Source of the DNA: a virus
Direction: 5' to 3' (one strand)
Virus record (IMG/VR): IMGVR_UViG_3300029197_000008
DNA: 45,159 nt
Shown here: positions 9,180 to 45,159 of the stretch, one piece after another
Layout of the letters: every line of letters begins with the position of its first letter
Position numbering within the stretch: position 1 is the stretch's first letter
The notes under the pieces: generated by a model
The model's input: only the letters and a program-made list of their open reading frames with translations
What the model was told of the DNA's origin: nothing
The model's database searches: none
Translations under genes and position numbers: made by a program

Positions 9180-9707
9180 TTAGCGAAAATATTCTCGGTC
9201 AGGTTTCAGTTCAACTCGAAATGACGAGCCACGACTGGTCGAAATTAAAAACCTCTGGTGTGTGGAGTCAGATGGAGCAGGTTCTAATGGAATCTGAAAC
9301 ACAAAGTAGCCGCTGCTTCCACCATATCCAGACAAACAAACCGGAAGAGACATATTGTGCAAGCTGCTGGAAGAAACGGTTTTTCCACCGATTTTCCGGT
9401 CTGAAGAAGCAACGATAGTTGGCAACTTATTGCATGGATATGTAATTCCGTTAATAACAATTGAGACATCTGTAATTGATATTGCGGAATTTGAGAGATT
9501 GTCGAACTGAATATAAGCCAAAGCCAGTTGTTTTTCTGGGCTATATCCAAAATAAGGTAAGCTCAAATGAAGATTACGCCGTGATTGAAATAATTGCCAA
9601 GCAGTTCCAGCAGACCCTATTAACCCAAGCATAAAGGAAACATTTTCAAACGTAATGATTTCTTTAGCCGATTTTAAAATTGAAATAATTTGATTTATTT
9701 TAATCAC
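9180..9707 (-). CDS. Membrane-anchored hypothetical protein (moron-like, candidate exclusion factor)
   Basis: One TM helix (VSFMLGLIGSAGTAW) plus a beta-rich domain. Preceded by copy 1 of the 42-bp promoter/SD element. The GTG start overlaps the SD, so the start is uncertain. Confidence 0.6.
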   Translation of the reverse strand: MIKINQIISILKSAKEIITFENVSFMLGLIGSAGTAWQLFQSRRNLHLSLPYFGYSPEKQLALAYIQFDNLSNSAISITDVSIVINGITYPCNKLPTIVASSDRKIGGKTVSSSSLHNMSLPVCLSGYGGSSGYFVFQIPLEPAPSDSTHQRFLISTSRGSSFRVELKPDREYFR

Positions 9708-9746
9708 CTCCCTCTACTGGGAGTATATCACAAGAAAGGAGTGAGT
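9705..9746. repeat. 42-bp bidirectional promoter/RBS element, copy 1
   Basis: CACCTCCCTCTACTGGGAGTATATCACAAGAAAGGAGTGAGT is identical to 10559-10600. The minus strand carries an extended -10 TGATATACT (9722-9730) and SD GAGGGAGG. The plus strand carries SD AAGGAG. Confidence 0.8.
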
Positions 9747-9748
9747 GC

Positions 9749-9910
9749 ATGACTACATTAGAAAGAACTGATATTGAAGATGGAAAACGTATTGTTGATA
9801 TCTTTACAACTTTATCAGAAGAAAACAAGAATATGGCAATCGTTTATCTTTCCGCATTGAGAGATAAGGAGATTGCGGATTCTTATAAGGCACAGAAAGA
9901 AAGTTCTTAA
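9749..9910 (+). CDS. Small hypothetical protein (53 aa)
   Basis: The ATG lies 8 nt after the AAGGAG contributed by repeat copy 1. Confidence 0.5.
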   Translation: MTTLERTDIEDGKRIVDIFTTLSEENKNMAIVYLSALRDKEIADSYKAQKESS

Positions 9911-10558: not shown

Positions 10559-10600
10559 CACCTCCCTCTACTGGGAGTATATCACAAGAAAGGAGTGAGT
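10559..10600. repeat. 42-bp bidirectional promoter/RBS element, copy 2
   Basis: Identical to 9705-9746. Extended -10 lies at 10576-10584 on the minus strand. Confidence 0.8.
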
Positions 10601-10604
10601 ACAC

Positions 10605-21817: not shown

Positions 21818-21857
21818 AAACATGTACCACAACTTTTCCACCAACCTATGATAGAAT
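21818..21857 (+). promoter_or_regulatory. Late promoter copy 1 (upstream of terL)
   Basis: AAACATGTACCACAACTTTT, then a 14-nt spacer whose 3' end supplies the TGA of the extended -10, then TAGAAT. The same 20-mer at the same 34-nt offset from a TG-extended -10 recurs at 29975-30014. Confidence 0.65.
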
Positions 21858-21910: not shown

Positions 21911-23476
21911 TTGGATGTTGATAGGATGGCAAACGAGGAAAATTTAAAACCATTTACAAGCAATCAAAGCCGTGAGGAAGCCGTGAGAAACGGACAAAAA
22001 GGCGGTATTGCATCTGGATATTCTAGGAGACAAAAAAAAGCCCTTTCTGATTATGTGAAAATTATAGCTGAAAGCCCTGCATCAAGTACTGCAAAAAAGA
22101 AACTTGCAAAAATGGGGATTGCTGACGAAGACGCAAATAACATGGCAGTCGTAGCAACTTCTCTGTATAAAAAAGCGGCAGATGGAAATATACAGGCTAT
22201 CGAAAAATGGGAGCAGCTAACAGCAGCTTCAAAAGACGATGATGAAAAATACGAACTTCCTGCCAGAGTGCTCGGCAAGGCATTCGTGGACATTAACCGA
22301 CAGATTAAGCCCAACATTGAATATGTATTCGAGGGCGGCCGAGGCGGTCTGAAATCTTCATTCGTAGCTTTTAAGATTGTTGAACTTATCAAGAATAATC
22401 CTCAGATGCACGCCTGCATTACAAGACAGGTGGCTGGTACTCTGAAAGATTCTGTATATGCCAATATGAAATGGGCTATCAATGAACTTGGACTGATGGA
22501 AGAATTTGAATGCAAGGTGTCACCACTTGAGATCAAGTATATTAAGACAGGGCAGACAATATACTTCCGTGGTCTGGACGATGAAACCAAACTGAAATCT
22601 ATTAAGCCGGAATTTGGATATATCGGAATCCTCTGGAAAGAAGAAAAAGACCAGATGAAGGGAGATGCTCAGGAACGTTCTGTTAATCAGTCAGTACTTC
22701 GTGGTGGCGATGAATCTTATGATTTTTCATCATACAACCCACCAAAATCAAAATCAAACTGGGTAAACAGGATCAAGCTCACACCTAACCCGAAAAGAGT
22801 TATTCATCATTCGAGTTATTTGGAAGCCCCGGCGGAGTGGCTTGGACAGAAGTTTATTGACGATGCAGCGCATCTGAAAGAAATCAATCCAGAAGCCTAT
22901 GAGCATGAATACCTGGGTGTTCCAAATGGTGACGGCGGAAACGTATTTGAATATCTGGAGATTAGAGATATTACAGATGAAGAAATCGTCCGCATGGATC
23001 GTATTTTCGCTGGCGTAGATTATGGATGGTACCCGGATGCCTTCTGCTATCTCCGAACTTATTACGATTCTGCTAGAGAGAAAATATATCTGATTGACGA
23101 ATTGTATGTAAATAAATGGAGCAACTCCAAGACCGCTGATTGGATCAAGAAAAAAGGCTATGACGATTATACGATGATATGTGATTCCGCGGAACCCAAG
23201 TCCGTGAACGACTTCCGGGATGCCGGACTTCCTGCCAGAGGAGCGATCAAAGGGCCGGGAAGTATCGAGTATGGTTTTAAGTTTTTACAGACTAAGACAC
23301 TTGTCATTGACCCGAAGCGGACACCGAACGCATATAAGGAAATCACAGAGTATGAGTACGATCGGGACAAAGAGGGAAATGTAATAAGCGGTTATCCTGA
23401 TGGAAACGATCATGCAATCTCGGCACTTAGGTATGCTTATGAGCCGTTATTTAACAGGAGGGGGTACAGTGCATAA
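21911..23476 (+). CDS. terL: Terminase large subunit with an N-terminal extension of about 130 aa
   Basis: Walker-A-like GGRGGLKSS. PBSX-type TerL layout. The C-terminal nuclease region ends DHAISALRYA. Confidence 0.9.
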   Translation: MDVDRMANEENLKPFTSNQSREEAVRNGQKGGIASGYSRRQKKALSDYVKIIAESPASSTAKKKLAKMGIADEDANNMAVVATSLYKKAADGNIQAIEKWEQLTAASKDDDEKYELPARVLGKAFVDINRQIKPNIEYVFEGGRGGLKSSFVAFKIVELIKNNPQMHACITRQVAGTLKDSVYANMKWAINELGLMEEFECKVSPLEIKYIKTGQTIYFRGLDDETKLKSIKPEFGYIGILWKEEKDQMKGDAQERSVNQSVLRGGDESYDFSSYNPPKSKSNWVNRIKLTPNPKRVIHHSSYLEAPAEWLGQKFIDDAAHLKEINPEAYEHEYLGVPNGDGGNVFEYLEIRDITDEEIVRMDRIFAGVDYGWYPDAFCYLRTYYDSAREKIYLIDELYVNKWSNSKTADWIKKKGYDDYTMICDSAEPKSVNDFRDAGLPARGAIKGPGSIEYGFKFLQTKTLVIDPKRTPNAYKEITEYEYDRDKEGNVISGYPDGNDHAISALRYAYEPLFNRRGYSA

Positions 23477-29412: not shown

Positions 29413-29967
29413 ATGAGAGATATTAAAGACTTATGCGCAAGAATTGAGGATGAGCTTTCCAAAATTGCTGATAATGGGCTGAACACTGGAAATCTGGAAA
29501 TGACATACAAACTGATTGATATGTATAAGGATATCAAGAATACGCAGTACTGGGACAAGAAAGTGGAATATTACAATACTGTCCTTGATGAGATGCGTGG
29601 TGGCTACAATGACGATTACAGCGAACGTGGAAGAAAACGTGACAGCATGGGGAGATACAGCGCAAATGATGGCAGAATGATGCCGGATTACGACAGAGGT
29701 AGTTCTTATGCCAGACGTGGTGAGCATTATGTCAGAGGACATTACAGCCGTTCTGACGGACGAGATGCTTATGACGACTATATGACGCAGAAACAGAGCT
29801 ATCGTTCCGGCAAATCCGAGGACTGCAAGAGAAAGATGCTTGCCGCTCTGGAAGAACATCTGGACGAACTCACAACAGAAATGAGCGATATGTCCAAGGA
29901 TGCGGAGTGCCGGGAGGAACGTGATCTTGTTAAAAGATACGTGGAAAAGCTCAGGGATATGCTCTAA
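29413..29967 (+). CDS. Charged Arg/Asp/Tyr-rich hypothetical protein
   Basis: SD GGAGG 7 nt before ATG 29413. The central region is R/D/Y/S low complexity. Confidence 0.65.
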   Translation: MRDIKDLCARIEDELSKIADNGLNTGNLEMTYKLIDMYKDIKNTQYWDKKVEYYNTVLDEMRGGYNDDYSERGRKRDSMGRYSANDGRMMPDYDRGSSYARRGEHYVRGHYSRSDGRDAYDDYMTQKQSYRSGKSEDCKRKMLAALEEHLDELTTEMSDMSKDAECREERDLVKRYVEKLRDML

Positions 29968-29974
29968 TTGGCTA

Positions 29975-30014
29975 AAACATGTACCACAACTTTTTGAAGG
30001 TTCTGTGATACAAT
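29975..30014 (+). promoter_or_regulatory. Late promoter copy 2 (upstream of the RNA locus, scaffold and capsid genes)
   Basis: AAACATGTACCACAACTTTT, then a 14-nt spacer whose 3' end supplies the TGA of the extended -10, then TACAAT. Confidence 0.65.
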
Positions 30015-30020
30015 ATATTC

Positions 30021-30338
30021 GTAGGGAAGATTTGTAATCAGAAATGCTTGACATAGACATTTTTATTGCTTTCCTCCTTTCTTTAAGCAGATGCGTGTCC
30101 TTAATAGAAACAGGTTCGGGGTGGAATCTGGAGGTTGAAAAGCGGATGCAATTTCCGACACGTATCATTGCCGTTAGTGCATGACGGCATACCTCCTCGT
30201 TAGCACATATAACTGAACAGTGGAATCCAACCCGTGCAGAGGTGCGCGACCGTATAGGCGGTGTTGACGTATCCCGAAACGTCTCGTGTTTAGGCATAGC
30301 ACGTAAAATACCTTGCTAACCCGGGAATCCGGGTTATG
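30021..30338 (+). ncRNA. Non-coding, hairpin-dense leader / candidate structured RNA
   Basis: No credible ORF. Stems at 30170-30190, 30266-30283 and 30317-30336 (8 bp). Possible long-range GGAGG/CCTCC pairing between 30130-30134 and 30193-30197. Confidence 0.3.
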
Positions 30339-30410
30339 TGGAATGTGCAGCTAGTGGAAAGCTGATAGGGACGAGTAACCTAGTCTCCGGTTCGATTCCG
30401 GGCGTTCCGC
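30339..30410 (+). ncRNA. tRNA-like element with an aberrant anticodon arm
   Basis: Acceptor TGGAATG/CGTTCCG. D-arm CAGC-TAGTGGAAA-GCTG. T-arm TCCGG-TTCGATT-CCGGG. The anticodon arm has a G-A mismatch, loop ACGAGTA (no U33) and a 3-nt variable loop. Confidence 0.4.
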
Positions 30411-30529
30411 TTTGATTCGGTTAGAATTACGCTGTCTGTATACAGATGGTCTATGATTCGACTGAATTTATCTCATGAGAAAAGGTTATTGCTTATCCTG
30501 CTGTCTGGTGTCCGGATCAAAAAGCATAA

Positions 30530-30601
30530 TGAAATGTAGCTCAGTGGTAGAGCAACATCCGCATAGGGTGCGTGTCGGCGGTTCGATTCCGCCTATTTCA
30601 T
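30530..30601 (+). tRNA. tRNA with CAU anticodon triplet (Met/Ile2-type) and an unusual loop
   Basis: Canonical D-arm GCTC-AGTGGTA-GAGC and T-arm GGCGG-TTCGATT-CCGCC. 7-bp acceptor stem. Anticodon loop CGCATAG has G instead of U at position 33, and 27:43 is an A-C mismatch. Confidence 0.55.
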
Positions 30602-30678
30602 TACCCTGCCAGTGGTCTAACTGGCTTAATCCACTTACCTGCGGCGGCAGGTCAATAAACACGACCAGGAGGATATAT

Positions 30679-31311
30679 ATGCAGAAACTTATTGACACAT
30701 TAAAATCATTTGGAATTGAAATCCCGGAGGACAAACAGGCAGATGTGAAAAAGGCACTCTCTGAGCATTATAAAAATGCTAAAGAAGTAGTGAAAACCCT
30801 GTCAAAAGTCGAGGGTGAACGTGATGACTGGAAAGAACGTGCTGAGACAGCAGAAGAAACCTTAAAAGGCTTTGACGGTATCGACCCGGCGAACATTCAG
30901 ACAGAGCTTGCTGGATGGAAGAAGAAAGCTGAGGACGCAGAGAAGGAATTCAATGCGAAGATCTACGAAAGAGATTTTGACGATGCTCTTAAAACTGCAT
31001 TGGAAAATGTTAATTTTTCATCTCCAGCAGCTAAAAGATCTGTTACTGCTGATATCAAATCAGCTGGTCTTAAGCTTAAGGACGGAAAGATTCTTGGACT
31101 TAATGATTTACTTGAACAGATGAAACAGGATGAACCTGATACATTTGTAGATGAATCTCAGCAGCAGGCTCAGCAGAACCAGGCAAGGTTTACCACTCAT
31201 GTTGGACAGCGGCAGACACCGGGAAACATGACCAAAAAAGATATCGAAGCAATCAAAGACCCGTCCGAAAGGCAGGCTGCAATTGCTCAGAATATCCAGT
31301 TATTCCAGTGA
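30679..31311 (+). CDS. Scaffolding protein
   Basis: SD AGGAGG 7 nt before ATG 30679. Helical and charged, 210 aa, directly upstream of the capsid gene. The track start at 30475 runs through the tRNA and is rejected. Confidence 0.8.
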   Translation: MQKLIDTLKSFGIEIPEDKQADVKKALSEHYKNAKEVVKTLSKVEGERDDWKERAETAEETLKGFDGIDPANIQTELAGWKKKAEDAEKEFNAKIYERDFDDALKTALENVNFSSPAAKRSVTADIKSAGLKLKDGKILGLNDLLEQMKQDEPDTFVDESQQQAQQNQARFTTHVGQRQTPGNMTKKDIEAIKDPSERQAAIAQNIQLFQ

Positions 31312-31390: not shown

Positions 31391-32557
31391 ATGGCAGCAA
31401 AAGCTAATCTTATTATGAGTAATGATATTCAGGTCACAGCACGTGAGATTGACTTTGTAACCAGATTCGAAAGAAACTGGGAACACTTACGCGAGATTCT
31501 TGGTATCATGCGTCCAATCAAAAAGACACCCGGAGCGGTTCTTAAATCAAAATACGCAGAAGGCACATTGCAGGATGGAAATGTTAAAGAGGGTGAAGAA
31601 ATCCCTTACAGCAAATTCACTGTAAAAGAGAAGCCTTATGCAGAAATGAGTATTGAGAAGTACGCAAAGGCTGTATCTATCGAAGCAATCAAGGATCACG
31701 GTTATGAAAACGCCGTTCAGATGACCGATGATGAATTCCTTTTCCAGCTTCAGACCAATGTTACTGAAAGATTTTATAATTATTTGAAAACAGGTACCCT
31801 CACATTTACAGAAACTACTTTCCAGATGGCCCTGGCAATGGCTAAAGGCCGTGTTGAGAACAAATTCAAACAGATGCACAGAAATGTGACTGGCGTTGTT
31901 GGATTTGTCAACATTCTGGATGTGTATGAGTATATCGGAGCAGCTGAGATTTCTATTCAGAATCAGTTCGGATTCCAGTATATGAAAAATTTCATGGGAT
32001 TCAATACAATCTTCCTGTTATCTGACAGCGAAATCCCGAGAGGACAGGTTATTGCAACACCTGTTGAGAACATCGTTCTGTACTATGTTGACCCGAACGA
32101 ATCTGATTTCGCAAGAGCAGGACTTGTATATACCGTATCTGGCGAGACAAACCTGATCGGATTCCACACTCAGGGCAACTACCACACAGCAGTATCCGAA
32201 GCATTTGCAATCATGGGACTTACCCTCTTTGCAGAGTACATTGATGCTATTGCTGTCGGAACTATCAACGTAACTCAGACACTTGGAACTCTGACTGTAA
32301 ACTCCACAGCAGGAAGTAAGAGCGGAGATACTAAAGTGACTGTTACTCCGACAAAAGCAAGCGCAGGAAATGCATATAAGTACAAAGTTGCATCTTCTGA
32401 GACTACTGTAGATTATGGCCAGAATGTGAAGAACTGGACTGCGTGGGATGGCGAATCTGACATTACCGCAACAACAGGGCAGGTAATCACAGTGGTTGAG
32501 TGTGACAGTACCTATAAGGCACTGAGCGCCGGACACGCAACTGTAACAGCAAAATGA
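31391..32557 (+). CDS. Major capsid protein with a C-terminal Ig-like domain
   Basis: 388 aa, positioned after the scaffold gene. The C-terminal TVNSTAGSKSGDTKVTVTP...ATVTAK region is Big_2-like. Confidence 0.85.
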   Translation: MAAKANLIMSNDIQVTAREIDFVTRFERNWEHLREILGIMRPIKKTPGAVLKSKYAEGTLQDGNVKEGEEIPYSKFTVKEKPYAEMSIEKYAKAVSIEAIKDHGYENAVQMTDDEFLFQLQTNVTERFYNYLKTGTLTFTETTFQMALAMAKGRVENKFKQMHRNVTGVVGFVNILDVYEYIGAAEISIQNQFGFQYMKNFMGFNTIFLLSDSEIPRGQVIATPVENIVLYYVDPNESDFARAGLVYTVSGETNLIGFHTQGNYHTAVSEAFAIMGLTLFAEYIDAIAVGTINVTQTLGTLTVNSTAGSKSGDTKVTVTPTKASAGNAYKYKVASSETTVDYGQNVKNWTAWDGESDITATTGQVITVVECDSTYKALSAGHATVTAK

Positions 32558-44779: not shown

Positions 44780-45082
44780 ATGGCAAAATTTAATGAATAT
44801 CCCGTAAAAACAACACCAAAAGATGCAGATAAATTTATGCTTTACAGTGCGGAGGATGCGGCAAACAAGCTGATTGATTATGATAAGCTTGCTGATGCGG
44901 TACTCAATAAATTGACATCAAAGACCTTCGGACTGGATCAGGGAACGATGACGTTACCGGCCGCGCTTAACCAATTAAATAGTAACCGGTTAAAACCCTT
45001 TTATAAAGGTATGATCACCAATAGACTAGTTACTGTTCCTCTTGTTCCGGGACTTTATCTAGTTTCAACGTATCCTATATAG
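44780..45082 (+). CDS. Small tail-fibre-like protein, paralogue of the constant part of 279-701 with a very short tip
   Basis: SD AAAAGGAG. TTPKDADKFMLYSAEDAANKLIDYDKLADAVLNKL ... LNQLNSN followed by only 31 aa. The stop corresponds to 86-88 in start coordinates. Confidence 0.6.
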   Translation: MAKFNEYPVKTTPKDADKFMLYSAEDAANKLIDYDKLADAVLNKLTSKTFGLDQGTMTLPAALNQLNSNRLKPFYKGMITNRLVTVPLVPGLYLVSTYPI

Positions 45083-45159
45083 AATGAATTATGAAATGGA
45101 GGTACATAAATAGCCGGTGCAAGCATAAGCCCTACATCAGTGCAGACAGGGGCGAAATA
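44995..45159. repeat. Terminal overlap copy 2 (identical to 1-165)
   Basis: Same as copy 1. Confidence 0.95.

Follow-up and report, generated by a model that had tools for sequence, protein, structure and literature searches.

We analyzed a 45-kb window of viral DNA (45,159 nucleotides), which has a terminal repeat of 165 nt and is a complete phage genome. Related prophages were found in Enterocloster, Blautia, Faecalimonas, Mediterraneibacter, and Ruminococcus genomes, including those of Enterocloster hominis CLA-SR-H021 and Blautia sp. MSJ-19, and the window probably represents a ~45-kb phage of gut Lachnospiraceae. The locus considered here is the leader of the scaffold gene, situated within the terminase/portal/scaffold/capsid module. 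Its features, listed with the neighboring late genes, are as follows:

21819 to 21837 (+), late-promoter upstream box, copy 1: an exact repeat of the box at 29976, belonging to the 60-nt repeat family D2, ahead of the terminase large subunit gene
21911 to 23476, terminase large subunit gene, with box copy 1 upstream
29976 to 30014 (+), putative late promoter, copy 2: box AACATGTACCACAACTTTT at 29976 to 29994 and extended -10 TGATACAAT at 30006 to 30014
30022 to 30089 (+), 5' leader, containing box 1, a small hairpin, and a U-rich tract
30073 to 30082 (+), box 1, CCUCCUUUCU, anti-Shine-Dalgarno-like
30090 to 30166 (+), RAGATH-21 RNA (Rfam RF03097)
30170 to 30198 (+), hairpin (30170 to 30190) and box 2, ACCUCCUC (30191 to 30198)
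30199 to 30292 (+), variable spacer with small hairpins (including 30266 to 30283), differing between lineages
30293 to 30335 (+), conserved pre-tRNA module, GGCAUAGCACG..ACCUUGCUAACCCGGGAAUCCGGGUU
30339 to 30410 (+), tRNA-like element A, in which the acceptor and T arms are well formed, the end is G-1:C73, and the anticodon arm is non-canonical
30411 to 30529 (+), structured spacer between the two elements, closed by the stem UUGAUUCGG/CCGGAUCAA and with the palindrome at 30434 to 30445 inside a hairpin
30530 to 30601 (+), tRNA-shaped element B
30602 to 30678 (+), scaffold-gene 5'UTR motif: hairpin H1 (30608-30612/30621-30625), AAUCCA, hairpin H2 (30638-30642/30647-30651), and Shine-Dalgarno AGGAGG (30667-30672)
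30679 to 31311 (+), scaffold protein gene, the first gene after the leader (Pfam Phage_scaffold, PF06810, 8e-22; PHROG 194)
31391 to 32557, major capsid gene, downstream of the scaffold gene (PHROG 544)

Five ORFs overlap positions 30015 to 30678: 29431-30297 (-), 30044-30184 (+), 30174-30302 (-), 30475-31311 (+), and 30486-30734 (-). The fourth of these is an in-frame upstream extension of the scaffold gene that runs through the tRNA. Because none of the five has a PHROG family match, we rejected a protein-coding reading of this stretch, in agreement with the first-pass annotation, which had seen no credible ORF before the scaffold gene. Every sequence item which that annotation had listed for 30015 to 30678 was present. 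It had also described the region as dense in hairpins, and the MFE folds contain those at 30170-30190, 30266-30283, and 30319-30335 as well as the palindrome at 30434-30445. From end to end (30022 to 30700), the leader folds with an MFE of -226.7 kcal/mol, compared to -197.0 +/- 7.5 for shuffled sequences (z = -3.96, with 0 of 20 shuffles as low). Overall, the 660-base gap upstream of the scaffold gene is a real non-coding leader and is densely structured. On the + strand inside it, we detected no convincing intrinsic terminator and no convincing sigma-70 promoter.

There are exactly two copies of AACATGTACCACAACTTTT in the window, at 21819 and 29976, compared to an expectation of 0.02, and an extended -10 lies downstream of each. 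The same layout of box and extended -10 lies upstream of RAGATH-21 in many relatives. These data suggest that AACATGTACCACAACTTTT and the extended -10 form a promoter, with a predicted transcription start near 30021 to 30023.

The leader contains a strong Rfam match to RAGATH-21 (86.9 bits, with the gathering score at 70.3; E 9e-16), which covers model positions 1-76 of 76. The first-pass annotation had suggested a large structured RNA for this locus and had named 30021 to 30338 as the decisive stretch; a curated RNA family does lie there. RAGATH-21 itself was not spotted in that annotation. The RNA consists of helix P1, the junction CCUUAAUAGAAA, a variable hairpin P2, a GNRA hairpin P3, and a T-arm-like hairpin P4 that is contiguous with the 3' strand of P1. 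We compiled 72 distinct sequences from 189 loci for covariation analysis. Pairs 2 to 10 of P1 are formed in at least 69 of the 72, with two to four pair types each, and P2 is represented by 49 distinct hairpin inserts of 12 to 37 nt. Very high sequence conservation stands beside freely varying helices. The window copy is a member of the family by its P1/P2 covariation as well as its phage context, and its folding energy (30090 to 30166, z = -3.34) differs from that of shuffles; the segment immediately downstream (30167 to 30292, z = -0.59) is indistinguishable from them. The nine well-conserved P1 pairs and the 3-bp P4 make a stack of 12, capped by the 7-nt loop UGCAAUU. In P4 the closing pair is A-U or G-U, compared to G53-C61 in true T-arms, and position 55 is G. 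We also considered a mini-ORF starting at an AUG in the P4 loop, with GGAGG 11 nt upstream, and rejected it: a sister copy has ACG there, close relatives differ in frame through single-base indels, and conservation is lacking in the peptide that would follow. We found no mention of RAGATH-21, and no description of its function, in the literature that we searched; the name RAGATH is absent from the main text of the NAR 2017 paper. New for this family are its fixed place at the head of a scaffold-operon leader, the CCUCC box upstream of it, and its exchange with mini-tRNA cassettes.

This exchange was apparent in the 80 contigs with the closest scaffold proteins. RAGATH-21 is present in 58 of them, and a 49-nt mini-tRNA consisting of an acceptor plus a T arm is present in the other 22. 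The two are mutually exclusive, occupy the same place between the same flanks, and are never both missing (0 of 80). One such cassette is that of L131, at 1252 to 1300. When the mini-tRNA is aligned to the Rfam tRNA model, the D and anticodon arms come out as deletions and the score is a marginal 17.7 bits (E 0.7). A third cassette, found at 69 remoter loci, has CCUUAA and GGUUGAAAA in common with RAGATH-21 but its T-arm is canonical. A full-length alignment with the RAGATH-21 model is again marginal (19.8 bits, E 0.71) and puts the T-loop on the P4 loop. The mini-tRNA cassettes also partially match the T-arms of tmRNA and mascRNA. Each link in the series from tRNA through mini-tRNA and intermediate cassette to RAGATH-21 combines a marginal score (E ~0.7) with positional equivalence. 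In other lineages, the cassette comes right after a strong terminator, which is preceded by GCCAG repeats and a gene for a Cys-rich zinc ribbon. Hammerhead or twister ribozymes might fill this slot in other phages, but an Rfam scan of 38 related loci, covering a minority of the cassette-less loci, detected no ribozyme.

In 275 of 296 loci, the 35 nt preceding the cassette contain CCTCC, compared to 1.4% of random 35-mers. Box 1, CCUCCUUUCU, is identical to the 3' tail of Firmicute 16S rRNA. The hairpin and box 2 that flank RAGATH-21 on its 3' side also follow the mini-tRNA cassette in sister phages. Both boxes are complementary over 7 to 8 nt to the invariant scaffold Shine-Dalgarno, AGGAGGAU, and the box CCUCCUUUCU is complementary at 10/10 bases to AGAAA-[P2]-GGAGG inside RAGATH-21. 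We dropped a specific pairing of the box with this RAGATH-21 sequence because the box is unchanged when cassette forms lack it; no covariation links the boxes to the purine stretches found in the three types of cassette. The CCUCC box could also be the reverse complement of a ribosome-binding site serving a minus-strand gene. We rejected this explanation given that, of 87 contexts, 39 have no start codon in range and a further 24 have ORFs of <30 codons.

Between RAGATH-21 and the scaffold gene lie the two elements that the first-pass annotation had described as tRNA-like with non-canonical loops. The pre-tRNA module is present in 175 loci, always 1 to 4 nt upstream of the first tRNA or tRNA-like element, whatever its type. 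Its hairpin varies in a compensatory manner (CCCGG/CCGGG, CCGGC/GCCGG); a second candidate helix in the module, UAGCA/UGCUA, is unsupported, with an A-C mismatch common among relatives. Element A follows, with a 7- to 8-bp acceptor and a T arm (UCCGG-UUCGAUU-CCGGG) whose T-loop is canonical. ARAGORN did not call it, the Rfam tRNA model did not match it at E <= 10, and its sole Rfam match is a 15-nt T-arm fragment to tmRNA (9.6 bits). In the register of its family, the anticodon arm consists of UAGG/CCUA with a G-A mismatch and the loop ACGAGUA; the mismatch and the loop had been read in this way earlier. The family alignment (A2) has 93.3% of cells paired and eight pairs with compensatory change; the acceptor alone is 97% paired, also with compensatory changes. 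Most family members have 5-nt anticodon loops of unrelated sequence. The tRNA-His-like G-1:C73 pair occurs in 11 of 15 members and is kept across remote lineages. The 119-nt spacer between the two elements folds with z = -2.44 and is conserved in relatives with wobble and compensatory changes.

Element B is a cloverleaf with G18G19, a canonical T-loop, and a CAU triplet. ARAGORN called it tRNA-Met(CAT) and the Rfam tRNA model scored it at 45.9 bits, above the cut-off of 29 bits. Its anticodon loop reads C32 G33 C34 A35 U36 A37 G38, in which U33 is missing and C32-G38 can pair, and A27 and C43 are unpaired (flagged as non-canonical in the Rfam alignment). The earlier reading of this loop, with G33 and an A-C apposition at the top of the anticodon stem, was right: B is called as tRNA-Met by ARAGORN and passes the Rfam tRNA model, with a non-canonical anticodon loop. 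U33 and unpaired positions 32 and 38 are near-universal rules for ribosomal decoding. The 16 variants of the B family (alignment A1) are 95.7% paired, with compensatory change in four of six anticodon-stem pairs. All 16 have the loop C-R-[C/U]-A-U-A-G, in which position 33 is G or A and never U, C32-G38 and positions A35 to A37 are invariant, and C34 is replaced by U in one variant. Since the families of A and B are both conserved and covarying, with non-canonical anticodon loops, neither element can be put down to sequencing noise or simple decay. Compared to canonical tRNA (RF00005), B shares the cloverleaf and differs by G33 and the C32-G38 pair, whereas A shares the acceptor, T, and D arms and differs by its mismatched stem and the loop ACGAGUA; neither encodes CCA.

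The D-arm-like fragment noted earlier at 30604 to 30650 is real, but represents the first of two hairpins that make up a conserved motif in the scaffold 5'UTR. The alignment of this motif (A3) is 97.8% paired with 25 double-sided changes. In 291 of 294 occurrences, the motif directly abuts a tRNA-shaped element, 9 to 11 nt past the T-arm. In the MFE fold, AUCC of the 5'UTR pairs with GGAU of the Shine-Dalgarno. Neither GP20-b nor any other Rfam model matches 30602 to 30678 at E <= 10. GP20-b (RF03003), a candidate cis-regulator of GP20-type scaffold genes, likewise stands directly before a GP20/Phage_scaffold gene and has two hairpins ahead of the Shine-Dalgarno; its sequence is different, however, and the window motif has its own covariation. 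The GP20-b model matches two related loci, L034 and L035, at the place equivalent to 30602 to 30678, and in lineages with this UTR, RAGATH-21 directly adjoins it.

We compared 85 distinct tRNA-shaped elements from these leaders. None encodes CCA, and the trailers start with UU in 66. U33 together with R37 occurs in 42 elements, four of which are artefactual calls on the 5-nt loops of family A; canonical-looking elements thus number about 38. A further 20 were called without U33, one was called without a 3-nt anticodon, and 22 were uncalled, including four that resemble ordinary tRNA-Tyr. Canonical Asn, Tyr, Ile, Gln, and Ser tRNAs occupy the same slots in relatives, and the slots show rapid identity turnover, partial duplications, and module swaps among near-identical phages. 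In one tRNA body family of 24 members, mean pairwise identity is 0.91 for the 5' acceptor strand plus D arm and 0.84 for the T arm plus 3' acceptor strand, but only 0.63 for the anticodon arm, which ranges from 18 to 24 nt in length. As candidate substrates of RNase P and RNase Z, A and B have about 12 stacked pairs, a T-loop cap, no CCA, and a U-rich trailer; RAGATH-21 has the 12 pairs and a 7-nt loop, but a closing pair other than G-C. Both A and B probably cannot decode. If about half of the tRNA-shaped genes in such leaders cannot decode, counts of phage tRNA genes made with standard finders overstate decoding capacity.

Among ~300 related contigs, the layout is constant: a CCUCC box, one cassette (RAGATH-21 or one of two mini-tRNA forms), zero to three variable tRNA or tRNA-like genes, the covarying 5'UTR motif, and the scaffold gene. 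In the 119 contigs that we selected by RAGATH-21, this RNA is followed by zero to three tRNA genes of varying identity and then by a scaffold ORF of ~210 aa. The distance from RAGATH-21 to the ATG ranges from 268 to 950 nt among close relatives, and in some lineages RAGATH-21 lies 92 nt upstream of the ATG with no tRNA between. Sequence matches, covariation, conserved module order, and module interchangeability are all established directly, and they point to a leader that is a chain of modules, each gained, lost, or swapped independently among close relatives. The locus is not one large RNA, a possibility that the first-pass annotation had raised.

That annotation had also pointed to the ROOL and GOLLD classes, which are found near tRNAs and are possibly co-transcribed with them (PMC5737381, PMC12286853). 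Neither ROOL (RF03087) nor GOLLD matches the window, whether the threshold is the gathering score or E <= 10, yet the lead was apt for sister phages: two of them, L064 and L102, carry a full ROOL (375 to 385 bits) in the same leader, together with the same RAGATH-21 core as the window, and tRNAs bound this ROOL within 0 to 8 nt on both sides. The genomic habitat is thus the same, while the cargo between the tRNA-shaped elements of the window is just the 119-nt structured spacer. We detected no tmRNA in the window with ARAGORN, and Rfam returned only the 9.6-bit T-arm fragment. Self-cleaving ribozymes (hammerhead, twister, pistol, hatchet, HDV-like) have no Rfam match at E <= 10 in 29500 to 31200. 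Even at E <= 10, only RAGATH-21, above its gathering score, and tRNA, at element B, match Rfam, and we therefore rejected ROOL, GOLLD, tmRNA, riboswitches, and ribozymes for the window. Theta ribozymes, which are HDV-like, have a role in tRNA end-processing. They adjoin gut-phage tRNAs (PMC10879173) and are likewise small structured RNAs in that position, but no HDV-like model matches in the window.

Acceptor/T-arm handles are known from other systems: the tRNA-like domain of tmRNA, mascRNA (MALAT1), the tRNA-miRNA chimeras of gammaherpesviruses, mitochondrial tRNA punctuation, and the "species 1/2" RNAs of the T4 tRNA operon. Such handles are non-decoding, and RNase P and RNase Z use them to set the ends of neighboring RNAs. 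The elements in the window belong to none of these sequence families and are accompanied by neither SmpB nor a tag ORF; the setting also differs, being the leader of a bacterial-virus capsid mRNA in which cleavage is putative.

With somewhat more belief than doubt, we propose that the locus is a tRNA-punctuated, modular leader of the late scaffold/capsid operon that is cut by RNase P and RNase Z, with RAGATH-21 as a derived mimic of an acceptor/T-arm. Of the roles that the first-pass annotation had raised (decoys, processing signals, anticodon-nuclease countermeasures), that of processing signals fits the comparative data best, the other two being conjectural; co-transcription and cleavage are what the anatomy of the leader and established tRNA biology would predict. 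A late transcript from ~30021 would cross the whole leader into the scaffold gene without meeting a strong terminator, carrying box 1, RAGATH-21, the hairpin and box 2, the pre-tRNA module, A, the spacer, B, and the two-hairpin 5'UTR in that order. Host RNase P on the 5' side and RNase Z on the 3' side, where no CCA is encoded, would cut at each tRNA-shaped module, freeing the intervening RNAs as separate small RNAs; the scaffold/capsid mRNA would then begin exactly where the UTR motif starts. A and B would serve mainly as punctuation or handles rather than as ordinary decoders, with their top halves and D arms kept and their anticodon arms remodelled. RAGATH-21, with its 12 stacked pairs and T-loop-like 7-nt loop, would be a derived mimic of a tRNA top half that replaces a tRNA at the head of the leader.

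A pure processing signal would let the loop sequence of B drift, yet it stays invariant in 16 variants. B must therefore also do something loop-specific, and the invariant loop seems to imply a further partner beyond processing. The marginal scores along the series from tRNA to RAGATH-21, and the P4 closing pair and G55 of RAGATH-21, also speak against the proposal. It does not account for the CCUCC boxes, for which any role is conjectural. A wider version of this proposal, which we consider speculative and improbable, holds that RAGATH-21 and its two sister cassettes are tRNA-derived mimics heading the capsid-operon leaders of many gut Clostridia phages, where they act with the CCUCCUUUCU boxes as a processing-dependent device. 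Late in infection, cleavage by RNase P and RNase Z would then either unmask the scaffold Shine-Dalgarno or liberate small anti-Shine-Dalgarno RNAs. The R33 and 5-nt-loop RNAs would be non-decoding mimics (one with a tRNA-His-like G-1:C73 end) that might be charged or might decoy tRNA-targeting defences.

Alternatively, B, and perhaps A, could be working decoder tRNAs whose altered loops resist host anticodon nucleases and so sustain the decoding of AUG/AUA (and other) codons. Changes in the anticodon loops of phage tRNAs have been proposed to evade tRNA-targeting defences (PMC10264068; PMC11555353), and there, too, the differences are concentrated in the loop. Both ARAGORN and the Rfam tRNA model recognise B. 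The CAU triplet and A37 do not vary in its family, save for one sister copy with UAU, which would keep AUA reading, and AUA occurs at 12 per 1,000 codons in the late genes. The canonical tRNAs of relatives also sit in the same slots. However, those defence-evading tRNAs keep a decodable 7-nt loop, whereas none of the 16 B variants has U33 and, in all of them, a Watson-Crick C32-G38 pair leaves a loop of 5 nt. Family A has mostly 5-nt loops of unrelated sequence that tRNA finders miss, and in other relatives the anticodon arm shrinks to 18 nt in total. We therefore consider decoding a possible but improbable role.

It is also rather unlikely that RAGATH-21 and the CCUCC boxes form a cis-regulatory device, either for processive antitermination or as a translational operator masking the Shine-Dalgarno, with the tRNA genes as passengers. 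What immediately precedes the cassette is always the late promoter or, in other lineages, a strong terminator; the boxes are complementary to AGGAGGAU, and the box CCUCCUUUCU also to the AGAAA and GGAGG stretches of RAGATH-21; and the family's conserved sequence beside varying helices is typical of an RNA with a specific partner. Against this, 22 of the 80 close relatives have the mini-tRNA instead of RAGATH-21 but keep the same boxes, which favors a tRNA-like role and speaks against a unique antiterminator fold. The absence of covariation between boxes and cassettes argues in the same direction, as does the variable cargo of up to ~1 kb between cassette and Shine-Dalgarno.

Turnover of tRNA identity, partial duplications, and swaps among near-identical phages are what would be expected if the non-canonical elements were functionless, decaying pseudogenes in a hot spot of tRNA-gene recombination. 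Decay should strike all arms, but the acceptor, D, and T arms are 84 to 91% identical while the anticodon arm alone diverges. Furthermore, the remodelled arms retain their helices through compensatory change, the B loop is invariant, and family A retains G-1:C73 across remote lineages, which makes this explanation very doubtful. Finally, a single large ornate RNA of the ROOL/GOLLD type spanning all 660 nt, although it would suit the folding energy of the whole leader (z = -3.96) and the ROOL in the same leader of sister phages, is already largely refuted and scarcely credible, given that no large-RNA model matches at E <= 10, that 30167 to 30292 folds like shuffles, and that close relatives differ by whole modules (268 to 950 nt from RAGATH-21 to the ATG), more than one folded unit would withstand.

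Several phage RNAs, RAGATH-21 and ROOL among them, are orphan motifs without a known job. Three such RNAs share one setting, the late-promoter leader of the scaffold/capsid genes: RAGATH-21 in the window, and ROOL and skipping-rope in relatives. If RAGATH-21 is a true mimic of the tRNA top half, this orphan motif gains a mechanism, and the conserved anti-Shine-Dalgarno-like boxes may represent an unrecognised layer of control over capsid-gene translation. Prophages with such leaders are present in cultivable hosts, namely Enterocloster hominis and Blautia sp.

The window is a complete phage genome of about 45 kb, since its ends are identical over 165 nt (1-165 = 44995-45159, an exact terminal direct repeat) and it carries terminase, portal, scaffold and capsid genes. 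The repeat points to a genome length of about 44,994 bp, with circular assembly or terminal redundancy. In the databases, its closest relatives are phage contigs from human faeces that lack annotation. The host is a member of the gut Clostridia, most likely of the Lachnospiraceae, because genomes of Enterocloster, Blautia, Faecalimonas, Lachnoclostridium, Mediterraneibacter, Eisenbergiella and Ruminococcus also contain the RNA that characterises the locus. RAGATH-21 loci binned as Bacteroidota (L124, an Odoribacter splanchnicus assembly) and Verrucomicrobiota (L125, an Akkermansia MAG) are probably mis-binned phage contigs rather than signs of true hosts. A 19-nt box, AACATGTACCACAACTTTT, is present in exactly two copies against 0.02 expected, each with an extended -10 downstream, and it is reasonable to read box and -10 together as a late promoter. 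A 45-nt direct repeat (CACCTCCCTCTACTGGGAGTATATCACAAGAAAGGAGTGAGT.CA), 98% identical, lies at 9705-9749 and 10559-10603, 854 nt apart in an early or regulatory region. The C-terminal domain of the major capsid protein matches that of the S-layer protein SbsC (PF18316, 2.6e-14) and is probably an Ig-like decoration domain.

Features of the window
21819: box AACATGTACCACAACTTTT, copy 1, ahead of the terminase gene
21911-23476, + strand: terminase gene
+ strand, same module as terminase, scaffold and capsid: portal and minor head protein genes
29976: box AACATGTACCACAACTTTT, copy 2, ahead of the leader
30073-30082: CCUCC-type box 1, upstream of the cassette (the module at the head of the leader)
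30090-30166, + strand: RAGATH-21 (Rfam, RF03097)
30191-30198: CCUCC-type box 2, 3' of the hairpin that closely follows the cassette (window's lineage)
30293-30335: pre-tRNA module, GGCAURRCACG..UUGCUAACC-hairpin-GGUU
30339-30410: element A, tRNA-like
30530-30601: element B, tRNA-shaped
30602-30678: two-hairpin 5'UTR motif of the scaffold gene
30679, + strand: ATG of the scaffold gene (Pfam Phage_scaffold, 8e-22)
31391-32557, + strand: major capsid gene

Every feature that the first-pass annotation had listed in the leader (30015-30678) was found in the sequence. As it had stated, there is no credible ORF: those overlapping the leader are antisense, tiny or an in-frame scaffold extension through the tRNA, and a PHROG search of them gave no family match. 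The leader (30022-30700) has a folding energy of -226.7 kcal/mol compared to -197.0 +/- 7.5 for shuffled sequences (z = -3.96), and 0 of 20 shuffles folded as well. By segment, z was -3.34 for RAGATH-21, -2.44 for the inter-tRNA spacer (30411-30529), -2.16 for the tRNA segment and only -0.59 for 30167-30292. Rfam models of ROOL, GOLLD, tmRNA, riboswitches and ribozymes gave no match at the locus, even at E <= 10. The annotation's proposal of a large structured RNA and/or tRNA mimics was therefore half right: a ROOL- or GOLLD-like giant is absent, but conserved non-canonical tRNA-shaped RNAs are present. The leader also holds a known orphan RNA that the annotation had overlooked, RAGATH-21, which scored 86.9 bits against a gathering score of 70.3 (E 9e-16) with the whole model covered. 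In the literature searched, we found no mention of this curated motif and no function described for it.

Searching with a pattern from the invariant core of RAGATH-21, we collected >119 viral contigs with a constant module order: upstream gene, promoter and/or hairpin with a U-run, CCUCC(UUUCU) box, RAGATH-21, zero to three tRNA genes, conserved UTR and a scaffold gene of ~210 aa. The tRNA identities vary (Met, Tyr, Ile, Asn, Val, Thr, Gln, Ser and others), and some lineages have no tRNA, with RAGATH-21 92 nt upstream of the scaffold ATG. As an unbiased sample, we used the 80 viral contigs with scaffold proteins closest to the window's (at least 89% identity). All 80 carry a cassette at the leader head, RAGATH-21 in 58 and a 49-nt element in 22; the two are mutually exclusive and share their flanks. 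The 49-nt element consists of an 8-bp helix, a linker (CUUUGAUGGAAAGUUAAA) and a canonical T-arm (ACAGG-UUCGAAU-CCUGU), with 98% of helix cells paired and a few compensatory changes; the Rfam tRNA model matches it only marginally (17.7 bits, E 0.7), with the D and anticodon arms deleted. A third cassette, found in 69 loci of remoter lineages collected through the UTR motif, is built from a helix, CCUU(AA/GC)(C/G)GGAA-GGUUGAAAAU and a canonical T-arm, and has CCUUAA and GGUUGAAAA in common with RAGATH-21. The RAGATH-21 model aligns it end to end, again marginally (19.8 bits, E 0.71), placing its T-loop UUCGAUU on the P4 loop UGCAAUU. The cassette is missing from a few lineages, in which a true tRNA directly follows the upstream terminator.

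Across 72 distinct RAGATH-21 sequences, each of the P1 pairs 2-10 forms in no fewer than 69 and shows two to four pair types; P2 varies freely as a hairpin of 12-37 nt. The P3 loop stays of the GNRA type through a GAAA to GGAA change. A small ORF starting at the AUG of the P4 loop was excluded because a relative has ACG there. In the model structure lines, the 3' strand of the enclosing helix follows the last hairpin without interruption, as in tRNA, and the nine well-conserved P1 pairs and three P4 pairs make 12 stacked pairs, the same number as in the tRNA acceptor/T stack. On the similarity scores, each marginal, combined with the positional equivalence of the cassettes, RAGATH-21 is probably a tRNA 'top-half' structure in derived form, into which a variable hairpin has been inserted. 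Extra mini-tRNA elements (ACCGUGC-AUGGAAGCAG-CCGGGUUCAAGCCCCGG-CGCACGGU) lie further downstream in L300/L320-type leaders (e.g., L320 6300-6340), and one partially matches the mascRNA T-arm. In contigs of other lineages (L034, L007, L037, L062, L073 and L300), a small Cys-rich zinc-ribbon gene (..NLPVFCPKCK..) precedes the cassette, and 3' of this gene GCCAG-N4-GCCAG-N6-GCCA repeats overlap a strong intrinsic terminator, an arrangement that looks like a protein-dependent antitermination switch.

Element B was called tRNA-Met(CAU) by ARAGORN and scored 45.9 bits with the tRNA model, and element A was called by neither tool. The loop of B reads C32-G33-C34-A35-U36-A37-G38, with A27 and C43 unpaired, as the annotation had it. 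Its 16 distinct relatives share the loop C-R-[C/U]-A-U-A-G, with C32 and G38 always present and U33 never; with a possible C32-G38 pair, the arm amounts to a 6-bp stem capped by a 5-nt loop. Four of the six pairs in the anticodon stem change compensatorily (95.7% of cells paired), and 0 of 500 shuffles reached this covariation score. The family of element A (n = 15) has an acceptor 97% paired, a canonical T-arm and a covarying helix at the anticodon position, which bears a 5-nt loop in 10 members (UCGCG, UCGCU, CCACU, UAUCA and others); the window's copy diverges from this pattern (UAGG/CCUA, a G-A mismatch and loop ACGAGUA). Eleven members, including those of remote lineages, have G at -1 opposite C73, a hallmark of bacterial tRNA-His acceptor ends, and none of these has a GUG anticodon.

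We then considered every acceptor-plus-T-arm element in the RAGATH-21-selected leaders (85 distinct sequences). U33 and a purine at 37 occur in 42; four of these calls are artefacts of family-A 5-nt loops, which leaves about 38 canonical-looking elements. ARAGORN called 20 others without U33 and one without a 3-nt anticodon; 22 were uncalled, four of which resemble ordinary tRNA-Tyr, missed in isolation. CCA is encoded in 0 of 85, and trailers begin with UU in 66, features of 3' ends that mature through RNase Z in Firmicutes. In a 24-member family with the body GGAAUGUAGCUCAG..., mean pairwise identity is 0.91 in the acceptor-5'/D-arm, 0.84 in the T-arm/acceptor-3' and 0.63 (minimum 0.38) in the anticodon arm, which is 18 to 24 nt long and may be a canonical Asn(GUU) or Ile(UAU) arm, an R33 loop or a 5-nt-loop stub. 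This pattern is the opposite of uniform decay: what RNase P, RNase Z and the CCA-adding enzyme recognise is retained, and remodelling affects the portion that the ribosome reads. Elements A and B are genuinely non-canonical, conserved tRNA-shaped RNAs.

The 5'UTR motif, which no Rfam model matches, is conserved across all lineages, with two helices 97.8% paired and 25 double-sided changes among 18 distinct sequences. Its first hairpin is what the annotation had described as a D-arm-like fragment at 30604-30650; the hairpin exists, but it belongs to this motif. In 291 of 294 occurrences a T-arm ends 9-11 nt upstream of the motif, with just the acceptor strand, the discriminator and one or two U in between. 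Its AAUCCA is predicted to pair with the Shine-Dalgarno sequence GGAGGAU, and both are invariant. The pre-tRNA module lies 1-4 nt upstream of the first tRNA-shaped element, whatever its type, in 175 loci. A and B are separated by a conserved, structured spacer of 119 nt. In L008, the spacer after the family-A element contains a partial tandem duplication (GAGAAAAGGTTATTGC...GCATAATGGAATGTAG twice), which illustrates the origin of new modules in the leader.

The leader thus consists of modules that are ordered, covarying and interchangeable, and we lean modestly toward a processing mechanism. The late promoter would give a single precursor; inside the leader we found no convincing terminator and no + strand sigma-70 promoter. 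Host RNase P and RNase Z would cut at each tRNA-shaped module, freeing the intervening RNAs and forming the 5' end of the scaffold/capsid mRNA at the UTR motif. In the window, this would release the 5' leader with its box, RAGATH-21, spacer 1, A, spacer 2 and B; sister phages would release ROOL too. Elements A and B would be chiefly punctuation or handles, RAGATH-21 being the first such handle. The main weakness of this mechanism is the invariant loop of B, which is unnecessary for a mere cleavage signal; a further, loop-specific interaction of B, for example with a synthetase, modification enzyme or nuclease, is therefore probable. That A and B are instead working decoders with nuclease-proof loops has precedent (PMC10264068), and a CAU to UAU variant fits AUA decoding, but U33 is lost, C32 can pair with G38 and loops of 5 nt occur, which makes this unlikely.

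The CCUCC(UUUCU) box has the sequence of the ten bases at the 3' end of Firmicute 16S rRNA. All three cassette types have it within 35 nt on their upstream side, and its sequence is constant despite the change of cassette. Exact CCUCC precedes the cassette in 275 of 296 loci compared to 1.4% of random 35-mers. Inspection of contexts ruled out a minus-strand ribosome-binding site. The box is perfectly complementary to AGAAA-[P2]-GGAGG of RAGATH-21 and complementary over 7-8 nt to the scaffold Shine-Dalgarno sequence; it may mask the latter until processing, yield an anti-Shine-Dalgarno small RNA or close a 5' stem. The second complementarity, and the position of the cassette 3' of a terminator with GCCAG repeats in other lineages, would suit a cis-regulatory role of RAGATH-21 and the boxes in read-through or translation, the tRNAs being passengers; a unique regulatory fold is hard to square with the exchange of RAGATH-21 for a plain mini-tRNA, and we regard such a role as quite unlikely. 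That the non-canonical elements are pseudogenes is contradicted by their covariation and is very improbable, and a single large ornate RNA, at odds with the module-wise variation and the absent model matches, is scarcely credible. Known kinds represented at the locus are the RAGATH-21 motif, phage tRNA islands with ornate RNAs and tRNA-like processing handles; the cassette equivalence linking RAGATH-21 to tRNA, the apparently non-decoding tRNA-shaped families, the anti-Shine-Dalgarno-like boxes and the fixed leader architecture are new.

ROOL and GOLLD are known near phage tRNA islands, with which they are possibly co-transcribed (PMC5737381; PMC12286853). The annotation's lead to these RNAs failed for the window itself, but an Rfam scan of 17 RAGATH-21 loci found complete ROOL in the same leader of two sister phages with the window's exact RAGATH-21 sequence.

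RNAs carried in relatives' leaders
L064 4213-4771, + strand: ROOL (375-386 bits, L064 and L102)
L102 7044-7602, - strand: ROOL (375-386 bits, L064 and L102)
L021 10362-10445: skipping-rope RNA (RF02924), 49.2 bits, adjoining the 3' side of a tRNA in the RAGATH-21 leader of a different lineage

In both sister phages, ROOL overlaps the 3' end of the upstream tRNA-Met by 7-8 nt and the downstream tRNA-Ser abuts or overlaps it, and the tRNA borders lie within 0-8 nt of overlap or gap; the transcription unit and boundaries of ROOL in these leaders can be named. In lineages without tRNAs, GP20-b lies directly 3' of RAGATH-21.
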